Part shown: in pieces, positions 86 through 31,005 of the stretch
Layout: every line of letters starts with the position of its first letter
Numbering within the stretch: position 1 is the first letter of the stretch
Source: Yuukianura sp. NJ FZ-2021
Lineage: Eukaryota
Reading direction: 5' to 3'
DNA length: 64,000 nt
NCBI GenBank assembly: GCA_046563655.1
Contig: CM102289.1
Span: forward strand, 7,316,001-7,380,000
Notes under the pieces: model-generated
The model's input: the letters and a program-made list of their open reading frames with translations, nothing else
Database searches by the model: none
What the model was told of the DNA's origin: nothing
Position numbers and translations under genes: made by a program

Positions 86-2913
86 TTAATGACTTCGACC
101 ACTTTGCCAGCGAGTACGACTTGACATTACGAATTCGGAACTTCGGGGATCTGTCATTGGTTGTCCAAAGCAATTAGCTAGGCAAGGGCACTTGCGCAGA
201 AGTGAAATTAGCTCTAAGCGGAACTTCTTTCCCAAGATGGAGTAGAACAAGAAGTTGACAGAGGAATTGACAATGACTGGAATGGAAGAGAAAACTTCGA
301 TGTCTCTGGGATCATAGCTTCCAAAGGACACGAATACCCAGATGATGGTTCCGTTGATTACGTTACTAATTACGAAAAAAATACTGACGCACAGAAGCAT
401 TACGGTCAGTGAGGTCATGTCACTTTCGCCTGACGCAGCAGACATGGATTGGCGATTCTTCAGTGACTGTTTGACCTATCAGAAAAAGAGAAAACCAAAA
501 ATAAAAACATTGATTAAAAAAAATTGCTAATTTTGTTGGCCGCACCTTAATCCATATTCTTGAATTGAGCACAGTGAGTAGAGGAATTGGAATGACGTAC
601 ATGAGGATAGCCCAGAAGTAGCCATGGTAGAATTGCCTGTAAGCACGTTCTTGTAAAATGTTTGGCTCATTGTACGCCCGTACCAAAATTTTTTGCAATC
701 GTGCTATGTACATCGGATTCCTTCGCATTTGCACTTTAATCGTAGAGCCAATAGTTTCAAACCAACGCGGTAAATTTACAACGATGGCTCCAATGAACAC
801 GATTATGCTCAAAATAACTGCTTTCCGTTTGTTTGTCCAAAACCGAATTTGAAGCGGGTAGCACACTGCTACAAATCGCTCCAACGTCACAATAATTGTT
901 ATGTACACAGATGCAGTGTGTGCTAGAAAGTTATTTAATATATTAAAACACAATTCTATAAAAATAAAACTTTTATAAATGTACTCAATACCTGTTTTGC
1001 TCAGCGGGTAAATATACTTGGACTGGAATTCTTCCAGCATCGTAACGGTCTCAATAGGTTGTTTTCCAAGGAGAGAAATTTCAGTTCCAGAACTGAAATG
1101 GCCCCATGGAAAATCATAAATTCCGAGGAATAGTGACACCAATTTGAATCCGTAGAGCGGTTGAGATAAAAACAACGTCCCCAGAATTGTTATATCAAAC
1201 AGCGCAAGTGCAATCATGAAGCAGCTTGTAGAGCTCATCATAGCCTTCCTCCTAAGGACTACAATGGAAATGACGTTTCCTAAAATTCCAACCAAACAAA
1301 CACCTCCGAGAACGTATATGTAGACGTAGAAGATCGTAACTTCTGTTGTCGCTTTGTCTTCTGGTCGAACTCCCAAAAATACCCATCTTCCATCGTACTT
1401 GCCTAGCCTAACATAATCTCCTTGCTTCGTAGAATTTGCATCTTCCAAAAATTTAAACACCTTGGCATTTTCTGCTCCGACTTGTTGCAGTCCTGTGATT
1501 GTTAATTCAGTCATTGAAGTATTCAAAAGTTGGCGCAAAAGGTCGTCGTTGATCTGATTGGTCAGATATACGTTTTCTAACTGACTGAACATGAATGAAA
1601 TATTTTCGACAACAGTGTCATCCAGGTCACAATTTTCTAGTGATAGAGAACGGATTGATTCGAATTGAAATCGTGAAGTCAATGTTAGTTTTAGGTCGCT
1701 TAGCGACAGCCATCTTATTGACTTCAGAGATTCCTTAAGAACTGAAAAGTCAAAGGTCATCTTTTGCTTCATATTACTTTGCTCAATGGTTATTGTATTA
1801 AGGGAAGTCAAATTCCTTAGGAATTCGAATCCTCCAACTTCAAATTTGACGTTGCGCAGTTCAATTTCTGTCAACACTGTACTGTTCAATGTGATTCCAG
1901 CGCTGTTGAATGCGGAGTTGTAAATTTTAAGCGTGTTCAACTTGGGCAGAATAGTTGGGTGATCGATTGATGCTGATGAATGGACAAGAACTGCATTGTC
2001 AATTGTGAACGACGTTAAAGATTCAGCATTGAGATAACTCAAGTCATACGTTGGGAATGAATACTGGAATGTGACATTTTGCAATTTCAACCTGTGAAAA
2101 ATGTAGAAAAAAGTGGGTTACTCAAAAACTGCCACCGATTAGTTTTGATTTCTTACTGTTCAACTTTGTTTAATCCTTGAAGAAGCGTGCTTGGTAAATT
2201 ATTCAAAAATTTTGAACACAGCACATCAAATTTCTTCACCTCGCTTCCATTGAATTTTGACAAGTCAATAACAGTTTCCACGGCTTCAAGAACTTTGTAT
2301 GGAAAGTACTGCTGCACGTCGTACGGAATTTTCTCCACCTTTAGTTCTTTCATAAAATAAACAAAGCTTCCGCCAAGTTCCGGCCGCAGAATTGTGGTCA
2401 TTGAGGCGATGGAAGCTAAATCTTCGTTTGGTGCATAGAATAACATGTCAAAGAAGTCTGATGGTGTACTTCCAGAAAATCCCCATTTTTTGCGCAAAAT
2501 GTCTACTCTGTATAATCTGGGAAGAGATACTTTTCCCCAAAATTGTCCATTCCACACAACGCCATTGAGCTTGATGTCGGTGAGACTTGTACATTCCTTT
2601 AATTCTTGTAGCAACTTTTTTGGATCAAATTCTACTGCAATTAGTGTAAGGTCTTCGATCGTTGATTTATTCTCGTATTGGATTTTTTCAAATTTTTCAA
2701 GTGGGTAATGCTCCCGCTCTCCCCGAATTATTACTTGATTCATCCACTAAAAACGTATACAACATCAATCATTTTTGTACGAATCGGTTACAGCATTGTA
2801 CATTTCTAATGTTAACCTACCACGCTTTCTTTTAGACTTTCTGCATTTGGGAAAATTGGCGCTGCAATGGCAAGAAAAGTCCAACACTTTAATACGAATA
2901 TGAAAATCGACAT
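86..2913 (-). CDS. Class A GPCR, FMRFamide/sex-peptide-receptor-like 7TM with signal peptide and ~475-aa LRR-like ectodomain (5 exons, 849 aa)
   Basis: Exons 2913-2821, 2746-2157, 2091-992, 922-546 and 475-86 join in frame through GT-AG introns (2550 nt). 7TM motifs: GILGNVISIVVL, LALFD, HTASVYITIIVTLERFVAVCYPL, NLPRWFE, NSSVNFLFY. N-terminal MSIFIFVLKCWTFLAIAAP is signal-like, and LxxLxLxN-like units follow (LPKLNTLKIYNS, IRSLSLENC, LTDIKLNGV). Confidence 0.85.
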
Positions 2914-3375: not shown

Positions 3376-4647
3376 TTAGCAAAAACCAATATCCCAGCAT
3401 CTGTCCGGTGCTTCGTTGCAAGTTTGCGTTTCAGAATCGTAGCATTCATCCCCACACCCAATTTGGCCTTGTGGGCAAAGAACGCGGTTGTGGCAAGTTA
3501 ATCCAGAAGTAACGGCGTTGTAACACCGATAGCCACAGAGTGATTCACCTAATTCACATAAGGTGCCACCATGACACGACTTTTCTTTGGGGTCAAAGCA
3601 ATCATAACCGCAAGGTGATTGGTCATTCGGGCACGGAAATTTACTGTACCCGGATTGCGTATGACAGGTTTCATTTTTTGGCCAGTAGCAGTAGTAGCTT
3701 CCGCACGGTTCTCTACCAGCATAGCAAACTTTCTTGTCGTTAAAGCAAGTTTCTTTGGTTGGGTCGTAACATTCGTAGCCACATAAAATGTTGCCTGCGT
3801 CACATTTTTGACCGTTGTGACAAGATTCTCCGTTTGCTTCCGAGTAACAGTTGCTTCCACACGGTTTTTCACCTTAAAAAAAATTTGTGGAGTTACATTT
3901 TTTTTATGTTAGACTTTCTTGATTTATAAATTAGAGAATTTTTGAAACCTTTTTTGCAAAGAACTTTTCCGGTACAATAAACTTCATCCGAAGGCGTGTA
4001 GCATTTGTAAGAGCCGCATGCGCTTTGACCTTTTGGACAAACTGTTTTGTCATTGACACAGTCGGAGGTCACGGGGTCATAACATCGGTGGTTGCAAAAT
4101 TGTTGGCCCTTTTCGCACAGCGTTCGGTGATTAAAGCATTCATGGGTGACTGGACTGTAACAATCGTATCCACAAACTTCTTCGGTTTGTTTGTAACAAA
4201 CAATTTCGTTGTTACGCAAGTAGCCTTGGTCGTTGCATGTTTGTGTCTCGGGCCAGTAGCATATGTGTCGGTTGCCACAAAGGCTTTGACCATTTTCGCA
4301 TACTGTGGTGCCATCTAGACAAGTTTGGTTTCCTGGAACGTAGCACGTATCCCCACAAGATTTCTGACCTTTGACACAGACTTGCTCGTTGTCATGACAT
4401 TCCTCCGTTTCCGGAGTGTAGCAACTATGGCCACAAAGGGACTGTGTCCTGGAGCATACGACGTACTCTACGCACGACACTGTTTCAACAAAAACGAGTC
4501 AATTTTTATGTTAACAAATAAGGAAGTTACTCTACTTTATCAGATTTTGGGAACAAAAAATTATGACTAAAAGTGCTTTTGAATTTTACCTTGTTCAATA
4601 ATTTGGAAGAGGACACAAATGGCTAAAACGCATGTCAGTTTTTCCAT
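3376..4647 (-). CDS. Secreted cysteine-rich repeat protein (12 four-Cys repeats, CBM52/galaxin-like; 361 aa)
   Basis: Exons 4647-4590 (MEKLTCVLAICVLFQIIEQ), 4479-3949 and 3872-3376, joined by phase-1 introns. The repeat C-x2-G-x3-CG-x2-CY-x-P-x4-C occurs 12 times. The correct frame of exon 3 is absent from the ORF track. Confidence 0.8.
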
Positions 4648-10348: not shown

Positions 10349-11886
10349 TCATCTCTTAAGCCTTGGTATCATTGCGGCAAATGGACTCCACCAGGGTTTG
10401 GAAGTGTTGCTGCTGCTTTCACTAGGCTTGTCAACTGGATACTTGATGGGTTCGTCATGATGTGAACTGTGACTGTGATTTGGTGGGTCTTGGTGGGGCA
10501 CTACAGTGGGATGCTGCTGTTGTTGATGAAAGTGTGATGGAAAATGCTGATGATGCGGATGGTTGTGGAGGTGATGATCATGTGGAGGAAAATGATGTTG
10601 ATGATTTAGTGGAGAAATGGGTCCTGGTTTTGGAATAAATGGAGGACCATTATAAGTAGGTGGACCATGACTGTGATGATGGTGACCATGATGGACTCCT
10701 TTCTTTTTGTCAACTAAGCCAAGTTCAAATAAAACTGGCTTGGAACTCAGAGCATGCGCAACGCCAAACGCAGCCAGTCCTGCTATTGGAGCAGCTATAA
10801 ATCCGGGATGGACTTCAACCTGATAGCGTTTTCTCTTGTGATCTGAAATCAACCCAAAAAAAAATTGAAAGTAAATCAAAATTCAAAATATGTGGAAGCT
10901 TCTATAAATACTCTAAAAATTCATATTTTAATTCAAAAATGTAATTTGAAATTACCGTAAACAGGATGATGGTGATAGTAAGGATGATGATAACTATATT
11001 GCCTTGGAACATCCCATGCATGGTGAATGACTGGAAACGACGTTGCGCTCGACTGCGCATGACTACTGTCATGTCCAATGACGCCGGTCGTCGGCCCTCC
11101 AAATCCAGTGTGGCCTAACACTCCATTGCCAGTAGTTCCGTAGCTGTTTGCAGAATTTGTACTGGATAAAAAGTTGCCAGTGGTTCCATGAGCCGACATG
11201 CGCGGTGGTAACGATACTTCGGTTGGGACAGGAGTATTTAGAATCTTAGGCGGTCTGTAACCCGTACTGGAAAAATGTGTGAAAGGTTGGAGGTCTTGCC
11301 AGTGATGAGTATTGGTGGCAGAAGTGATAGGATTCACATGATTATGAACATGAAGTCGTGTTTGATGATCATTTGCTAAAAAGTGTCTGTTTCTATTTTG
11401 AAAAGCGTAGGGGTCATATACACTGTCATGTGACCATGTTGGTTGTCCAAAGTTGTCATGAACATGGTCGTCAACTACTTTGAACGAAAGTGTTTTCGCG
11501 GCAACTTGGGAAGTATCTGGAACAGTATTGTCTTCGTTCCAAGTCCAATCTGGAATTGAAATGAAATGGGGATGAAACAAAACAAAATCAATTTTTTAAG
11601 CATTCGATCTTGAAAAACTTCAAATTTTACCAGAACTTCGACCAATTCCGGTGACTTTTGCTAGCTCTGTTTCAGTTGAATGAGGCCTGTTCGAATTCCA
11701 AATCCAATTTGCTTTGTTCTGTAGGTTCTGACTTGGAAAATTAGATGGATGCCAGTTTGAATCCGAATCGGTTTGACGATTCCATAAGTGAGATCTTTGT
11801 GGCTCTGAAAACTTGAGAACGTAGGCCAAGTGCTGATGAATTTGCAGAAACGTTAAAACTAAAAATATCGACTTTTTCAAATACAT
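10349..11886 (-). CDS. Histidine/proline-rich secreted low-complexity protein (3 exons, 447 aa)
   Basis: Exons 11886-11631, 11549-10956 and 10842-10349 join in frame (1344 nt). Signal-like MYLKKSIFLVLTFLQI, His-rich tracts (HHPYYHHHP, HHGHHHHSHG, HDHHLHNHPHHQH) and one hydrophobic stretch FIAAPIAGLAAFGVAHAL. Confidence 0.7.
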
Positions 11887-12383: not shown

Positions 12384-12973
12384 CTAGTTTTGAACACGGC
12401 CAATCACGTAGACGCAAATCACAATTTGGACGACAGTGAAGAGTTGAAGAGTCTGCGCAGAATTTGTAACGCTGGGAGAACATATTCCATCACCATTGGC
12501 ATTCAACAGACATTTTCCACTTTTACAGTTTTTGGCATTGTCGTTAGCATTTTTCTGAAACACCTTTAGGGCTTCCTTGGAAAGCTGAATGTCACTGGAA
12601 GCCGGCGGATCTTCGCAAAACGAGTCCTTACAGAGTTTTCCATCATCACATCCGAATCCGTTAACACGGTCATGGCTGCTGCCGCTGCCCTTTTCGTTGC
12701 CCTTCTTCATGGAAAAATAGACAGCAATGAACACTCCAACAGAAACGGCGAGGACGACTCCCATGACGATGAATCCATACATCATGCGTCGGTTCCGGTC
12801 ACGCTGAACACGTTCCACAACTTCTGGAGCTGGATTGTCGTAGTGAAAAACGACGTCCGGTTGGTGGTAACCATAGCCGTGACGACTGTGATGCTCCTAA
12901 GTAAAAAAAACAGCATAAAAATCATGCTAGCTCAACATGAATTAACTGTTCAAGTGATTAGACTTACATGCAT
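12384..12973 (-). CDS. Tandem-family copy A: TM + 6-Cys domain + hydrophobic C-tail protein
   Basis: Micro-exon ATG CAT|GTAAGT (12973-12968), then exon 12896-12384. Encodes HYDNPAPE, TM YGFIVMGVVLAVSVGVFIAVYFSM, CDDGKLC...CKSGKC-x9-C and tail LQLFTVVQIVICVYVIGR. Confidence 0.75.
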
Positions 12974-13309
12974 TACGGAAAATGTAAAGGATTCGAAAAT
13001 CAAAACCAAGATTTGTCGCTTGGGCAGAGTATTCTGACAGACCATAGACTATAAAATGAGATGCAGATAATGATGACACCGCACCGCGATCGCTCGCGCG
13101 CGAACCGACAACAGCAATCTGTCGAAAAAAAATTCCAAGCAAAGTGTATTTTTACAATCACTTAAAATCACCTTGGTGATCTGATCTTTTATTACAGAAA
13201 GCAGACCTTTTACTAAAAAAAAAAGGTTTAGTAAAAGGTTTAGTAATATCATGTACCAAATTTTTATTATGGTTTTTTACTAACCTTGAATAATGTCAAG
13301 CTATGTAGA

Positions 13310-13560
13310 TGTCAGACGCTATAAAAATCCGAGACAAGAGTCTATGAACCTGCGCAGAATCTTTATCACTGGCAGTGTATAACTTCCTCCATAAAATCAT
13401 TCACAAGCAAGCGGTTAAGCATAAAAACGCATGCAGTAACAAAACAAGAAATAAAAGTAAAATATCCTGAACATTGTTTTTAATGTGACTAAACGTAACA
13501 TGTCACAGATGGAATGTGGATTCGGAAAACCTACAACAAGCACGATATAGATTTCGCTTG
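13310..13560 (-). pseudogene. Tandem-family copy B: internally deleted remnant
   Basis: 13330-13410 matches the 3' coding part of the paralogs (gacaagagt..gaacctgcgcagaatc). 13512-13545 matches their shared upstream motif (gaatgtggattcggaaaacctacaacaagc). No ORF remains, and the ATG|GT donor is altered. Confidence 0.55.
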
Positions 13561-13834
13561 ATAAAATTCAACAAAATCACAATTGCAACTTCTCTTGCAA
13601 AAGAGTTAATAATAGTTCGTACTTCTTTTATTAATTTGACTAGTTTTAACCTCAATGCAAAGTTCAAGTTGGCGAAATTTTAATTGGTTGAAGTTACAAA
13701 GCTTGAATACGGTTTTTTATTAATTCAATTCGAATTAAAGTCAACACGAAGTCGAACTTTAGTCATTTTAATGGAAGCTTTGGCGGATGTAATTTAGTAC
13801 GGAGTATTTCCTTAGGCTGTGGTAGTTGGTGAAG

Positions 13835-14705
13835 TTACAAAGCTTGAATACGTCCACGCACGCAGGCGCAAAGTGCAGTCAGGACACTGGCCACGAACAG
13901 TAGAGGCTGCACAGAGTTTGCGATTACAGCAGATGGGCTGCAAACCGGTTCATTATAACGGCTCTCCAGACATTTTTTACTTTTACAATGGCCGGCATAC
14001 TCCTTGAGCTCTTCCTGCGTAAAATGCAAGGTGCCTTTGACAACCAAAATACAACAAGTTGTATTTGCTACACCAGGTTATTCAGTACCTCCCTACTTCA
14101 AAATTTTTGGAGGAAAACAATTTTTTCCTCCAATTTTCCTCCAATTCCATTAAATTACATACAAATCACTACCATAGCAAGGCACGGCGACGCAAGTTTT
14201 GCAAATTATTTGAGAAAATTAAAAACATCGACTTACTGAATAACCTGGTGTAGAATAAACAGTTTGTTTATTTGTTTACCCACCTTGGTAAAATGTTTGA
14301 CCTTCTCCCACTGCATTTTTTCTGTGGTCCTGGCGGCGTGACAGTCTGGGTAAGTGTCACAGGCTTTCCCATCGTCACATAACTTCGAATCACCACTGTC
14401 GCTTTTCTTGTCCTTGTTGTCCGCTGGTTGTCCTTGTTGTTGCTTCATATAGTACATGATACCAACGATAAGTCCCACAGAAACCAGGAGGGAGATTCCC
14501 GAGACGATGAATCCATAAATCATCCGTCGGTTCCGATCACGCTGAACCTGCTCCACAACTTCTGGAGCTGGATTGTCGTAGTGAAAAACGACGTCGGGTT
14601 GGTGGTGGCGAAAACTGTGATGACTGTCGTGCTACGTAAAAAAACATAAAAATCACGCCAGGCAAACATAGACTAAACTGTACAAGTGAATGGACTTACA
14701 GGCAT
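13835..14705 (-). CDS. Tandem-family copy C (3 exons, extra intron containing a MITE)
   Basis: ATG CCT|GTAAGT at 14705. Exon ~14631-14284, then intron 14283-14015 (AAG|GT...CAG|GAA), then exon 14014-13835. Splicing restores the family C3-C4 spacing of 28 aa and gives CKSKKC-x9-C plus the tail PLLFVASVLTALCACV. Confidence 0.7.
14071..14250. mobile_element. MITE-like element, 180 bp, TA target-site duplication (Tc1/mariner-type signature)
   Basis: Perfect 20-bp inverted repeat ctacaccaggttattcagta (14068-14087) / tactgaataacctggtgtag (14234-14253), which includes the flanking TA on each side. The interior is AT-rich and non-coding. Confidence 0.75.
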
Positions 14706-15011
14706 TACGGAAAATTTGGAGAACTGGAAAATCAAAACCACGATTTGTCGCTTGGACAGAAAATGGCGACAGGCTTGACTGAATTGAGATAGATGAGGAA
14801 ACTGCGGGAAAATACCGAGGTATCGCCAACAGCAATCCGTCGTAAAATTTGAAACAAACTTTAGCGCTACAATACCTAAAATCACTATGGTGATATTTGT
14901 ATTTAAATTTTGATATTTTACCGAAAGCGAAATTTTAATTTCATGTTCCTGTTTGTTTGGCTTTTTAAAGTGAAGTTATTTATAATAATTAAAGTGCAGT
15001 TTTTAGAATAC

Positions 15012-15337
15012 TCAAAATTTTAAAAAGCTCGAAGACGCCATCAACATACCAGACAAGAGTGATTGAACCTGCGCAGAATCCGTACCACTTGCAGCACATA
15101 CATCATCCCCAAAAGCATTCACCAGGCATTTTCCACTTTTACACCGGCCATTTTGCCCATTCGTTGTTTCTTGAAATTCAAGTGCAACAAATTCCTGTGA
15201 GTGCTGGGTCACCGCAACCTTTGCAGAGTTTTCCATCATGGCATTTCGCAAGATCAGCGGAACTTTCATGTTTCTTGTCCCCGACAACCACGAAATTGAC
15301 GAGGGCCCCAAGACCTCCAAGTACTAAGAACAACACT
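15012..15337 (-). pseudogene. Tandem-family copy D2: 5'-truncated, frameshifted duplicate of copy E
   Basis: Starts mid-TM (VLFLVLGGLGALVNFVVVG). CHDGKLCKGC is in one frame, with a stop soon after; CKSGKCLVNAFGDDVCAASGTDSAQ is in another. The frameshift lies near 15190. Confidence 0.7.
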
Positions 15338-15419
15338 TTTTGTTGAACAACACAAAAAATTTTTTGAAACAATTCCAAAAATCAATTTGGTTTCATCGTA
15401 TTTTATTAAAATAGAAGAG

Positions 15420-15782
15420 CAGTCTGGGAAAGTGTTACAGGCCATCCCATCGTCACATAACTTCGAATCACCACTGTCGCTTTTCTTGTCCTTGTTGTCC
15501 GCTGGTTGTCCTTGTTGTTGCTTCATATTGTACATGAAACCAACGGTAAGTCCCACAACAACCAGGAGGACGACTCCCGTGGCGATGAATCCATAAATCA
15601 TCCGTCGGTTCCGATCACGCTGAACCTGCTCCACAACTTCTGGAGCTGGATTGTCGTAGTGAAAAACGACGTCCGGTTGGTGGTGGCGATAATCGTGATG
15701 ACTGTCGTGCTACGTAAAAAACATAAAAATCACGCGAGGTAAACATAAATTAAACTGTACAAGTGAGTGGACTTACAGGCAT
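15420..15782 (-). pseudogene. Tandem-family copy D1: 3'-truncated duplicate of copy C
   Basis: ATG CCT|GTAAGT at 15782. Encodes QRDRNRRM, the TM and CDDGMACNTFPDC, then homology ends at ~15420 in AT-rich filler. C4-C6 and the tail are missing. Confidence 0.65.
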
Positions 15783-16092
15783 TACGGAAAATTTGGAGAA
15801 TTCGAAAATCAAAACCACGATTTGTCGCTTGGACCGAAAATGGCGACAGGCTTGACTGAATTGAGATTGATGAGGAAACTGCGGGAAAATTCAGAGGTAT
15901 CGCCAACAGCAATCCGTCGAAAAAATTTTTGAAACAAACTTTATAGCTACAATACCTAAAATCACCATGGTGATGTATTTGTATCTAAATTTTGATATTT
16001 TACCGAAAGCGAAAATTTTAATTTCAAGTTCCAGTTTAGTTTGGCTTTTTAAAGTGTAGTTAGTTATAATTATTTTTAGAATACTCAAAATT

Positions 16093-16755
16093 TTAAAAAG
16101 CCTGAAAACGTCCAAGTACGCAGACGGTAGACGCCATCAAAATACCACACAAGAGTGGTTGAGTCTGAGCAGAATCCGTACCACTCGCAGCACATACGTT
16201 CTGCCCAAAAGCATTCACCAGGCATTTTCCACTTTTACACCCGCCACTTTTCCCATCCGCATAAAGTTCTTGAAAACGAAGCATGTCTTGTGCAGAAATA
16301 CGCGTTCCTTCGAGTTGTGGAGCACCGCATTTTTTACAGAGTTGTCCATCATGGCATTTCCAACGATCATCGGGACTTCCCTTTTTGCTGCCCCCGACAA
16401 CCACGAAATTGACAAGAGCCCCAAGACCTCCAAGTACTAAGAACAACACTGCCAGGCCAACGAAGACTTTCCAGGTACCTTTACGTCCTTGTGCCTGGGC
16501 TTGTTGGACTTGTTCTGGAGTCGGATTGTTGTAACGCATGGTCACATTTCCACGAGCGTCTTCAACCATAACCGTACTTGGAACTGCATTGGTTTGTTGA
16601 AAACCGGAGCTTTGACCGGGTTGATCCGAAATTAAATCTTGAGTTGTATTTTCGTAAGCAAACGCTGAAGCCTAAACAAGGCAGTGACCAATTAAGATTT
16701 TAAAATAAAAGCAAAACATTCAAACATAAATTTTGAATTGAGTAAACTTTACCAT
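16093..16755 (-). CDS. Tandem-family copy E
   Basis: Met-only first exon ATG|GTAAAG (16755-16753). The acceptor tttag|GCT TCA GCG opens ASAFAYENTTQ...RYNNPTPE, TM, CHDGQLCKKC...CKSGKC-x9-C and tail PLLCGILMASTVCVLGR. Confidence 0.8.
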
Positions 16756-17139
16756 GTCGGTACCAGAATGTGGATTCGGAATTCAAAAACAAGCGGGATA
16801 TCCGTTCTGACAAACAATTTAATGGGGCTGCTGTACGGTAGATTAAAATTTGACTGCGCGAGAACGGCAAATCACATCTTGCCAAATTAAAAATTTGGTT
16901 TTTCACTGGAAAATTTTTTGAGACAAGCAATATTTTCATAATCCTTTAGACAGACCGCACGTTGGTGATACCAAAGTTAATAAATCTGCATTTTACTCTA
17001 TTTTTCAGAATTCTCTTAAAAATTATTTTCTCCCTTATATCGTTTATTAATTCATTTCAAATTTAAATCAACATGAACATACGACGGAATATGTGTAATG
17101 ATTAAATAGTTTTACTGTAGATTGTGGTAATTGTTGAAG

Positions 17140-17813
17140 TTACAAAGCTGGAATACGTCCAAGCACGCATGCGCAAAGTGTAGTCAAGACGCCAGTCATG
17201 AGCAGAAGGGGTTGCACAGCATTCAGCCCAACAGCATTAGTAGGGGTGCATACCGTCTCGCCGAATGTATTCACCAGACATTGTCCACTTTTGCAATTGC
17301 GGGCCGCAAGGGTGGCCACTTGCTGTATGATAGTTCTCTCCCGCTCCGGAATTCCGTTTCCTTCACCGGTAGCAGGGCCGCATCCTGGATACGTGTCACA
17401 GAGTTTCCCCGCGTCACACTTCGGAGCGCCACCACTGCCGTCGTCTTTGTTCTTTTTAGCGTACATGACCCCGAGGCTGATGCCCACACAAACGACCACG
17501 AAGGCTGCCATGCCAATGAAAATGTAGCAACTTTTACCCCGTCGTCGTGCTTGGGCTTGTTGGACTTGTTCTGGGGTCGGATTGTTGTAACGCATGGTCA
17601 CATTTCCACGAGCGTCTTCAACCATAACCGTACTTGGAACCGCATTGTTTTGTTGAAAACCGGAACTTTGACCAGGTTGATTCGAGGCAAAATTTTGACC
17701 TGTATTGTCGAAAGTAAATCCTGAAGCCTAAAAAAAGGCAGTGACCAAATAAAAACTTGACATAAAAGTACAGCATGCTGAACATGGATTTTAGAGTGAG
17801 TAAACTTTACCAT
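17140..17813 (-). CDS. Tandem-family copy F
   Basis: ATG|GTAAAG at 17813. In-frame exon 2 encodes RYNNPTPE, TM CYIFIGMAAFVVVCVGISLGVMYA, CDAGKLCDTYPGC...CKSGQC-x9-C and tail PLLLMTGVLTTLCACVLGR. Confidence 0.8.
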
Positions 17814-18248
17814 GTCGTAGTCAGAATGTGGAATTGACAACCTAAAACAAGCGGGATGTCGTTTGGACAAACAATTTAAAGAGACTGACGTACGGTAGAT
17901 GAAAATTCGACCGCCGAGAACAACAAATCTCAACAGCTTGTTTGAAAATTAACTTTTTTTTATTGAATAATATTTTTAAACAAACTCCATTTTCATAATC
18001 TTATAGTCAGAAATCACCTTGGAGATACAAATACGAATGTCTGCAATAATTTACTTCTTCTTTTTTCAAAATTCAAAAAATCATCAAAAAAAATATCTCT
18101 TACATCGTTTATTTCAATTCAAATTTAAATGAACATGAACTTATAACGTACTATATACTAAGTTTAATTTTTTACCGAAACTTTATAATTTCAGTTTCTA
18201 AACAAATTTTGTGTTAGGGTAGTGTGAATATTGTTGTGTTTAGAATAC

Positions 18249-18918
18249 TCAAAATTTTACAAGGGTTGAATAACGCCCAACGATGTAGATGCTGGATGCT
18301 GTCAAAATAGCAGACAAGAGTGGTTGAGCCTGCGCAGAATCCGTACCACTTGGAGCACATACGTCCCGATGAAAGGCATTCACCATGCAAAATCCACTTT
18401 TACACCAATCATTGTGCTTCTCCGCAAATCGTTGAAAATCAATTATTTGATCTGCAGAGATACGGGTTCCATCGAGTTGTGGGTTTTTGCAGTTATCGCA
18501 AAGTTTTCCATCATCACATTTCGGACGATCCGCGGGACCTCCCTTTTTGCTGCCCCCGACAACCACGAAATTGACGAGGGCCCCAAGACCTCCAAGTACT
18601 AAGAACAACACTGCCAGGCCAACGAAGATTTTCCAGGTACCTTTATTTGCTTCTGCCTGGGCTTGTTGGACTTGTTCTGGGGTCGGATTGTTGTAACGCA
18701 CGGTCACATTTCCACGAGCGTCTTCAACCAGAACCGTACTTGGAACTGCATTGTTTTGTTGAACACCGGAGCTTTGACCAGGTTGATCCGAAATTAAATC
18801 TTGAGTTGTATTTTCGTAAGCAAACGCTGAAGCCTAAACAGAGGCAGTGACCAATTAAAATGTTGAGATAAAAGTAAAACATCCAAACATAAGGTTTAAA
18901 TTTAGTAAATCTTACCAT
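18249..18918 (-). CDS. Tandem-family copy G
   Basis: ATG|GTAAG at 18918. Exon 2 is closely similar to copy E and encodes CDDGKLCDNC...CKSGFC-x9-C and tail PLLSAILTASSIYIVGR. Confidence 0.8.
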
Positions 18919-19368
18919 GTCGGATCTAGAATGTGGGTTCAAAAATCAGAAACAAGCGGGATGTTGTTTGGACGAAGAGTGTGATGAGGCTGTGTAACGG
19001 TAGATTATACTGGATGCGCGAGAAGGAAAAATCACAGTTTTGTTCGAATCCAAAATTTGGTTTTCATTGAAAAATTTTCTGAAACAAACTCCATTTTCAT
19101 AGACAGAATATCACCTTGGTGATACGAAATGACAAAATGAGTATCTGAATTTTGCTCTGCTTCTTTTCTTTAGCAATAATTAATTTTTTTTACTTGGGGC
19201 GTGGCGTAATAGGAGAAGCAAAAAAAGAGAAATGAAATGTTGAGAAAAATTGAACGACGAGTGTCAAGTGTACAATATTTGATTTTGGCAGGACAAGCTG
19301 ACAAACTAAAAATATTTGTTAAGATACTTATCATGTATGCTAACATAAAGTTTAAGAAAAGTAGGAGT

Positions 19369-24032: not shown

Positions 24033-24799
24033 TCAGAATTTACGATGTAATTTAGTACTTGCATGCAGCAGCCATGTATACTCAGATGCCATGCGCAATC
24101 CGAACACTTCAGTCGTGTTTCCAAGCAGCCGTGCAGCATCTTCATCAATGGCAAAACATACTTCTTCTCCATCAGCAGCATTTGCAAAGTATCTCCCACT
24201 ACTACATTTGACTAGCGCTTCACGATCAGGAACTTGCCGCTGAAGGAGGTAAGTTTGGAATTCGGGGAAGATCGGAATTCCTCCAGATTGAGGATCGTTG
24301 CAGAACGGATACGGATTCCATAGTTTTCCATCCGGACATTTAGCAAAACCGGCGTAGAGGTCGTGAGCAGGAACAGTATTTGCGTTGGCAGATAGGACTC
24401 CCCATACAACAAGCACGACGATAATAGGTATAAGACACAGACAGCAAATACCGCAAACAGTGCCGACGATGATCCAGATGATGCAATTCCGGTTTTGGCG
24501 CTGTTCCCGCTGCATCGCTGCCGGATCTCCTGCTGGCACGGGATACAACCCCGCCTTCAGGCAGCAAATTAACTTTTAGCATTAAAATTGAAAGTTATAG
24601 ATTGAACTTTTACTAGTACGAGCATTTTTTGAACTAACCTGCATGCCAAATGGAGTTGGATTGTAAACCGGCTGCATCCCAACTGGAGGCGGATTGCTGG
24701 GATAATTACCCTGGTAAAGAAGCCGTAAATTCGTGTAAGCTTTGTATTTGAAATCCAACGTTATTTTTGTTTAAAAAATGCGAAACTTACTTGTTGCAT
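24033..24799 (-). CDS. Tandem-family diverged outlier H (4-Cys variant, Cys-rich TM)
   Basis: Micro-exon ATG CAA CAA|GTAAGT at 24799, exon ~24711-24640 (GNYPSNPPPVGMQPVYNPTPFGMQ), then a last exon ending at 24033. KCPDGKLW...CNDPQ...KCSSGRY...NAADGEEVC aligns with the family domain. It carries the same upstream motif aatgtggattcgaaaatc. Confidence 0.7.
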
Positions 24800-29086: not shown

Positions 29087-30010
29087 ATGGTTGGCCAATG
29101 GATCAGCGACGGTTCGCCGCAGATTCACATCAGCTCAGATGGAACTGAAGTGGAAAGTGTCATGACCGATGGATCTTCTGGCGGGAACGTTTTCAACGCA
29201 ATGTGGAAAGAAGCTGAAGAGGGCGCCACTAGTGGAACACACTACTGGAAAATCCATGTCACAAATTTGGAATCAAATTCCGTTTTTGTTGGATTCACGG
29301 ATTTAGAAAAATTCAAAAAAGGCTGGGCAATGAAAGGCCTACTCTTCGGTGGACCCGGGAATCTTTCAAACGGCGGAGCTCTCGTTCTCGGTGGCTATGG
29401 ACCGCATATTAAGTCTGGCAATACGGTCGGAATGTTGGCAGCATTTGACAGCGGGAAACTCAAAATCTGGTTTGACCTTGACGGAGAACCTTTGGGTCAA
29501 GCCTTTGACCTTCATGAATCAACTCTCAATGGAATATATCCGTGTGTCCATTTCAGTGGAGCAGGAAAGGCAACTATTGTCAAGAGTGACGAAATTCCAA
29601 CGGATTTGAATCGAAGAGAGCCAGTTTACGAGGGAATTGAAGGGAACTGGAAATGCTTGGAATTCAAAGGAGCTAAGCCCGCCACTGGAGTGAGCGTGGG
29701 AATTTTTAAAAACGAAGATGGCGCTGAAGGTTTCCGTGTCCACTTGCGTGTGTTGAACAGCATTAATTATGGAATTCATCATGACGCAAGTACTGGAAAA
29801 TGGACTGGTTCTGGTGGAATGACGACTTTAATGGGTGGCCCACCGGAACTTATGAAATTGGAACATGACATGAAAGATTTATTTGCAAGTCCGTCCAAGG
29901 TTGAAGTTGAAGATGGAAATCTGGTGGTGACTAGTACTTCCGATGCTACTTCCAAATGGCAGCGATACTCTACTGCTAAAGCCGCAGTTACACAAAACCC
30001 ATTTCACTGA
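29087..30010 (+). CDS. SPRY-domain + META/HslJ-like domain protein, intronless CDS (307 aa)
   Basis: ATG at 29087, just after a tacag acceptor (29076). SPRY-like motifs SGTHYWKIHV, VFVG, IKSGNTVGM, DGEPLGQAF, IYPCV. The C-terminal half has EGNWKC...N...TTLMGGPPELMKLEHDM, resembling the META-domain TxMxxPxxxMxxE motif. Confidence 0.75.
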   Translation: MVGQWISDGSPQIHISSDGTEVESVMTDGSSGGNVFNAMWKEAEEGATSGTHYWKIHVTNLESNSVFVGFTDLEKFKKGWAMKGLLFGGPGNLSNGGALVLGGYGPHIKSGNTVGMLAAFDSGKLKIWFDLDGEPLGQAFDLHESTLNGIYPCVHFSGAGKATIVKSDEIPTDLNRREPVYEGIEGNWKCLEFKGAKPATGVSVGIFKNEDGAEGFRVHLRVLNSINYGIHHDASTGKWTGSGGMTTLMGGPPELMKLEHDMKDLFASPSKVEVEDGNLVVTSTSDATSKWQRYSTAKAAVTQNPFH

Positions 30011-30471: not shown

Positions 30472-30590
30472 GCCAAGGTCCATACCACGTTGAAAGCACC
30501 AGTTCTCGTCCGATCACTGAAGTTAAGCAACGTCGGGCCCGGTTAGTACTTGGATGGGTGACCGCCTGGGAACCCCGGGTGCTCTTGGCT
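30472..30590 (+). rRNA. 5S ribosomal RNA, copy 1
   Basis: 119 nt gccaaggtccataccacgttgaaagcacc...gaagttaagc...ttagtacttggatgggtgaccgcctgggaacccc...ttggct. The 5' and 3' ends pair, the internal Pol III boxes are present, and a T-run terminator follows. Confidence 0.97.
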
Positions 30591-30677
30591 TCTTTTTTTA
30601 CCAGCATTTTCAAATTTTTATATTTTGGAATCTGGGGAACTTGTGCTTTGACTGTGTGTTATTTTCCTTCTCCTTTC

Positions 30678-30796
30678 GCCAAGGTCCATACCACGTTGAA
30701 AGCACCAGTTCTCGTCCGATCACTGAAGTTAAGCAACGTCGGGCCCGGTTAGTACTTGGATGGGTGACCGCCTGGGAACCCCGGGTGCTCTTGGCT
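30678..30796 (+). rRNA. 5S ribosomal RNA, copy 2
   Basis: Identical to copy 1, 206 bp downstream, followed by a T-run. Confidence 0.97.
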
Positions 30797-30886
30797 TCTT
30801 TTTTTTTTAACGCCAACTTCAAATTTGTATATTTTTCAATGTGGGGAACTTGTGCTTTGACTTTGTGTTATTTTCCTTTTCCTTTC

Positions 30887-31005
30887 GCCAAGGTCCATAC
30901 CACGTTGAAAGCACCAGTTCTCGTCCGATCACTGAAGTTAAGCAACGTCGGGCCCGGTTAGTACTTGGATGGGTGACCGCCTGGGAACCCCGGGTGCTCT
31001 TGGCA
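30887..31005 (+). rRNA. 5S ribosomal RNA, copy 3
   Basis: Identical except for the terminal base (ggca), 209 bp after copy 2, followed by a T-run. Confidence 0.96.

Follow-up and report, generated by a model that had tools for sequence, protein, structure and literature searches.

The analyzed window is a 64,000-nucleotide (nt) stretch of the genome of Yuukianura sp. NJ FZ-2021 (assembly GCA_046563655.1, contig CM102289.1, positions 7,316,001-7,380,000 of the forward strand; all coordinates below are window positions), a eukaryotic sequence of approximately 38% GC that carries a tandem array of genes for small, six-cysteine membrane proteins. According to the gene models, five open genes (A, C, E, F and G) follow one another head to tail on the minus strand, about 1 kb apart, with three broken pieces (psiB, psiD1 and psiD2) among them, in agreement with a preliminary description of the locus that had counted five intact and three broken paralogs. 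A ninth copy, H, lies outside the interval 12384..18918 considered in that description.

12384..12973, minus strand: copy A, intact, 172 amino acids (aa); exon 1 12968-12973, intron 12897-12967, exon 2 12384-12896; Cys domain 12480-12650
about 13275..13530, minus strand: psiB, a remnant that keeps the E/G-type 5′ leader motif; its ATG lacks a GT donor, the central coding part is gone and the tail remnant contains stops
13835..14705, minus strand: copy C, 177 aa if spliced; exons 14700-14705, 14284-14631 and 13835-14014
15012..15337, minus strand: psiD2, the 3′ part of an E-like copy from the middle of the transmembrane segment on, with one deletion that shifts the frame in the insert and another in the tail
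about 15415..15782, minus strand: psiD1, a C-like 5′ part through Cys III, then about 80 nt of unrelated AT-rich DNA
16093..16755, minus strand: copy E, intact, 193 aa; intron 16672-16752; Cys domain 16192-16356
17140..17813, minus strand: copy F, intact, 196 aa, a mosaic with an E/G-type 5′ part and a C-type 3′ part; intron 17728-17810; Cys domain 17248-17418
18249..18918, minus strand: copy G, intact, 195 aa; intron 18834-18915; Cys domain 18357-18518
24033..24799, minus strand: copy H, divergent; the best exon model (24791-24799, 24639-24710 and 24033-24554) gives 200 aa

All five open genes begin with a first coding exon of 3-6 nt followed by a phase-0 GT-AG intron, and most introns of the array genes are 68-84 nt long. 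Copy H has the common first-exon layout and a leader motif of the family, and was recovered at E 1.3e-7 by a profile built without it.

Each intact array copy contains one small domain with exactly six Cys. The intervals between successive Cys are 5/4/29/4/9 in A, 5/5/28/4/9 in C and F, 5/2/29/4/9 in E and 5/2/28/4/9 in G, and the spacing proposed earlier fits all five. The pattern occurs four times in the unspliced six-frame translation of the window, where C would need splicing to appear, and never in 100 shuffles. The insert between Cys III and IV, 28-29 residues long, varies more than any other segment (aa identity 8-43% across all 10 pairs), as the preliminary description had stated, but it is not the plain loop envisaged there, since it contains a predicted 17-residue helix, the longest predicted in the ectodomain. 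In the predicted model (pLDDT, a per-residue confidence measure, of 73) residues 52-54 and 60-62 form a hairpin and there are single bridges besides, and structure comparison aligned the whole length to knottins, with weak Z scores. A pairing of Cys II with Cys V is suggested by copy H, which has only four domain Cys and has lost precisely these two, to Trp and Tyr, respectively. Cys I-VI span 54-57 residues because of the insert, exceeding the approximately 30-40 residues and short loops typical of knottins. No knottin profile or solved chain was matched in sequence searches, although short divergent knottins are easily missed in this way. Judging from the model, the domain is probably a knottin-like core with a large insert and not a new fold. 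No relatives of the array family were found in databases that include Folsomia proteins. P0002, an unnamed type II membrane protein of 391 aa that has Cys repeats, aligns to the transmembrane segment and Cys I-V of the family, either by chance or through a distant link.

Most of the structural neighbors are channel-targeting venom knottins, which would suit a role as endogenous tethered modulators ("prototoxins"), the knot acting in cis on the animal's own channels or chemoreceptors. Receptor-modulating proteins of toxin fold held by a glycosylphosphatidylinositol (GPI) anchor do exist, as described for the lynx family (PMC6502960). However, a shared fold proves no function, no partner gene has been identified, and a protein with a conserved host channel partner would less readily be expected to show fast turnover, with 3/9 copies broken, or a hypervariable insert. 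Such a role appears unlikely.

The first hydrophobic segment (TM1; 19-residue Kyte-Doolittle mean 2.5-2.7) begins at residue 41-70 behind 40-68 polar residues and is therefore not a classical signal peptide. A type II transmembrane (TM) orientation after a cytosolic tail is supported by hydropathy and by a charge bias that is N-in for A, C, E, F and H, with an Arg-rich N-flank in A, C and F, but even in the ambiguous G. Two types of N-tail, A/C and E/F/G, align poorly, and a Y-x-N-P motif about 20 residues ahead of TM1 is kept in both. The N-tail of H is rich in Pro, Gln and Tyr, and its TM segment is Cys-rich, making palmitoylation possible.

The ectodomain is compact (73-89 aa), beginning with a stalk of 13-24 aa that contains Lys-Lys in 5/5 array copies and not in H. 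The dibasic pair could mark a membrane-bound precursor, in which the stalk is cut or TM1 removed to yield a GPI-only or shed soluble knottin that serves as an antifungal or protease-inhibiting effector. Lys-Lys is, however, a weak convertase site, the net charge of the insert (-1 to +1) is unlike that of cationic antimicrobials, and the N-tail is conserved and homogenised, which suggests a role for the tail. Although knottins are normally secreted inhibitors or antimicrobials, according to PMC6268209, a precursor of this kind seems even less likely than a tethered modulator.

The 31-35 residues past Cys VI run from small residues through a conserved [N/D][S/A][A/V]Q into 19-22 uncharged positions, and end with an Arg and a few residues more. 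The 19-residue hydropathy mean of this C-tail is about 2.0 in A, C and F, 1.6 in E and 1.2 in G; H (0.39) lacks a hydrophobic C-tail and may be a single-anchored form, either ancestral or derived. In a written-rule check against a published GPI-signal layout (PMC2571997), the attachment (omega) residue, the overall length and the hydrophobic tail agree. The linker is short, and so is the spacer, unless omega is taken to be the Ser or Asn 3-4 residues past Cys VI, which would lengthen the spacer. The C-terminal anchor postulated earlier thus agrees with most of the rules, and we consider a GPI signal the probable, if far from certain, identity of the tail. The conserved Arg after the uncharged run, together with the hydropathy, also fits a second TM helix, which is possible but doubtful; in a tethered modulator, two TM helices would resemble a two-TM auxiliary subunit.

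Whole-gene omega (dN/dS) was fitted for six pairs out of 10. In four it amounts to 0.44-0.56, lower than 1 at p<0.02; A-F is saturated and E-G stands at 1.03. When E is compared with psiD2, the insert is 66% identical and its flanks 83-95% (p 5e-7 against 3′ noncoding DNA), a contrast that is suggestive only because psiD2 is broken. Copies E and G are 95% identical in nucleotides over the N-tail and TM1, against 72% for the 5′ flank and 65-79% for the part starting at Cys I, which points to gene conversion of their N-tail. Next, 5′ trees place F with E and G (98/99) and reject C+F (p-AU 0.0009), whereas 3′ trees place F with C (92/94, not starred). The preliminary description had contrasted diverging loops with untranslated regions and introns that stay similar; this is true of the 5′ halves, but the 3′ halves of A-C and E-F have diverged throughout, and the conflicting trees of F indicate that much of the reported pattern is mosaicism. 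The data support, as had been suggested, a family that is lineage-restricted and evolves by birth and death, its members being type II membrane proteins in which a second hydrophobic segment lies at the C-terminus.

Copy C, listed earlier as intact, is so only if an additional intron is removed, splicing that we infer; the unspliced frame stops after 134 aa.

14015..14283, minus strand: second intron of copy C, 269 nt, derived from a 261-bp insertion at 14027-14287

The insertion interrupts the Cys domain; it is bounded by an 8-bp target-site duplication, which is exact, and its terminal inverted repeats measure 7 bp. The donor GT lies within the end of the element and the acceptor AG in host DNA, and both frame and length are preserved. 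Nested within it is a TA-flanked 180-bp hairpin element (14071-14250), without which the outer element would be about 80 bp, the usual intron size here. One type of introner is described as carrying its own 5′ splice site and co-opting the 3′ site from the host (10.1101/2022.06.06.494994). The region 14015-14295 resembles introners of that source in its target-site duplication, terminal inverted repeats, carried 5′ site, co-opted 3′ site, in-frame product and unchanged protein length, and likely represents an introner-like intron, present as a single copy in the window.

A 14-bp palindrome occurs five times in the window against 0.53 expected, in each case 176-200 bp upstream of an array ATG and at array genes only.

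13167..13180, no strand: palindrome of A, 194 bp before the ATG
14881..14894, no strand: palindrome of C, one mismatch
15961..15974, no strand: palindrome of psiD1
18013..18026, no strand: palindrome of F, one mismatch
19110..19123, no strand: palindrome of G

A variant is found near 16956. Between promoter types the palindrome is kept at 11-14/14 positions, and ungapped flanks there match at 6-20/40. It loosely resembles RFX X-box or T-box cores, a resemblance that would be congenial to the modulator role considered above. Separately, the palindrome core is similar to the ends of the copy C element.

Directly observed at the locus are the gene structure, TM1, the six Cys, the GPI-like tail, the variable insert and the mosaic copies, and together they define a real, orphan and structurally intriguing family, for which a function can be proposed. 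The explanation that we favor, tentatively, is a lineage-restricted cell-surface recognition family, whose members would display a variable helical insert on a knottin-like scaffold with an anchor at either end. First, TM1 would serve as an uncleaved type II signal-anchor, leaving the N-tail cytosolic, while in the endoplasmic reticulum the six Cys would form an inhibitor cystine knot (ICK; I-IV, II-V, III-VI) with the 28-29 residues between III and IV, including one helix, looped out. Next, GPI would replace the tail at a small residue 3-9 positions past Cys VI; as the termini of a knot lie close together, both anchors would sit in the same membrane, fixing the orientation of the domain and holding it flat on the cell surface. 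Finally, the insert would bind an external ligand, non-self being the likeliest kind (microbe, fungus or parasite), the conserved Y-x-N-P tail would sort or signal, and unequal crossing-over and conversion would reshuffle tails and ectodomains, creating and killing copies.

Several observations weigh against this explanation. Insert omega exceeds 1 in E-G (1.72) and C-F (3.35), but neither value is significant, and kB-like sites are not enriched, so that the defence role suggested earlier finds no direct support even as the lineage-restricted, two-segment membrane family beneath it stands. Sequons, moreover, occur in the N-tails of E, F and G only and in none of the ectodomains of A, C, E, F and G, which counts against the assumed topology. 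Along with the missing charge bias of G, the low Z and the E-G omega, they could point to a different arrangement: a luminal N-tail, a cytosolic metal-binding Cys loop between two TMs, a non-knot disulfide fold, or mostly drifting copies. The Arg-rich N-flanks of A, C and F, the absence of CxxC pair spacing from these same copies, the loss of two Cys as a pair in H and the purifying selection in four pairs make such arrangements quite improbable. A tandem array, a variable ectodomain and the lack of relatives in Folsomia-containing databases would equally be expected of gamete or self-recognition proteins under reproductive rather than pathogen pressure, yet nothing specific indicates gonads, and we regard that origin as very unlikely. 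For the recognition family, non-self recognition may be the likeliest driver, a view we hold with less than even confidence.

The array is flanked by His/Pro-rich open reading frames (ORFs) and a UDP-glucuronosyltransferase gene. Two such ORFs (10349-11595, minus strand), without a Pfam match, probably encode cuticular-type proteins. A Cys-rich repeat protein at 3376-4498 (minus strand) has weak matches to PF10645, a fungal-type carbohydrate-binding module (E 0.001-0.004, below the cut-off). At 420-2117 (minus strand) lies an open frame of 565 aa in which a leucine-rich-repeat-like region leads into a rhodopsin-family G-protein-coupled receptor (7tm_1 E 2e-9), possibly a peptide-receptor-like one with a leucine-rich-repeat ectodomain. 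On the plus strand, a single-exon gene at 29087-30010 has weak SPRY and META matches; its relatives, among 16 database hits, include unnamed metagenome proteins, and Folsomia candida is the closest named one (40% identity), which marks the animal as springtail-like; three 5S rRNA genes lie in tandem at 30472-31005.

Proteins with both TM and GPI anchors are rare; besides tetherin, a review names four, namely a form of the prion protein, ponticulin, Sm23 and NcSRS2 (PMC3989765). Tetherin (BST2), which combines a type II TM, a coiled coil, spare Cys, glycans and GPI in the account of that review, shares with the array family a short Tyr-containing cytosolic tail, a type II TM, a GPI-like C-terminal signal and a size of about 170-200 aa. 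In contrast, the array proteins have no long coiled coil but one 17-residue helix within a compact disulfide domain, no spare Cys for interchain bonds and no ectodomain N-glycan site, and are encoded in a multi-copy array. No homology to tetherin was detected, and membership in its family is rejected; the tetherin-like topology proposed earlier stands for the two anchors, the C-terminal one being a candidate, and ends there. Convergent function, with one anchor in each membrane retaining budding virions, is conceivable in that an artificial TM, coiled-coil and GPI protein restricts virus release without homology (PMC3989765), but the short ectodomain and helix, the lack of unpaired Cys and sequons, and a hypervariable insert unneeded for tethering leave it scarcely credible.

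Ly6/uPAR proteins adopt a three-finger fold with 8-10 Cys, have a cleaved signal peptide and are encoded in multigene clusters. With six Cys, a first hydrophobic segment only at residue 41-70 and no LU Pfam match, an LU domain was rejected for the array family, which, unlike the Ly6/uPAR proteins, has an N-terminal TM and a predicted cytosolic tail. The likeness to the prototoxins lynx1 and relatives, as presented in PMC6502960, would lie in a toxin-like disulfide fold held at the cell surface by GPI.

Compared with ICK proteins and knottins (for example SOTI-III, PDB 4aoq, and the spider and anemone ICK peptides), the family has the six Cys, compatible spacing except at III-IV and a predicted C-terminal hairpin; it differs in the helical insert, the absence of a cleavable N-terminal signal, the placing of the domain after a type II TM and ahead of a GPI-like tail, and the lack of any sequence-level match. 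A literature search found, among the papers listed, no membrane-tethered or type II and GPI-anchored knottin, although springtail genome supplements, which lay outside it, may list the family. If the tail were a second TM or the fold not a knot, an orphan surface family would remain. If both fold and anchors are true, TM-plus-GPI anchoring and the knottin, known as a secreted or cyclic peptide, would be joined in one natural protein, the knot would tolerate a 28-residue helical graft, and a basal hexapod would possess a candidate diversifying recognition family. A bolder and rather unlikely extension is a class of doubly membrane-anchored knottins, whose TM and GPI close the backbone much as cyclisation does in cyclotides, with the hypervariable III-IV helix as binding surface and recombination pairing few conserved Tyr-bearing tails with many ectodomains into a diversifying receptor or tethered-modulator repertoire of a soil hexapod. 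Among known systems, the array family is probably best placed as a new architectural variant of the knottin scaffold.

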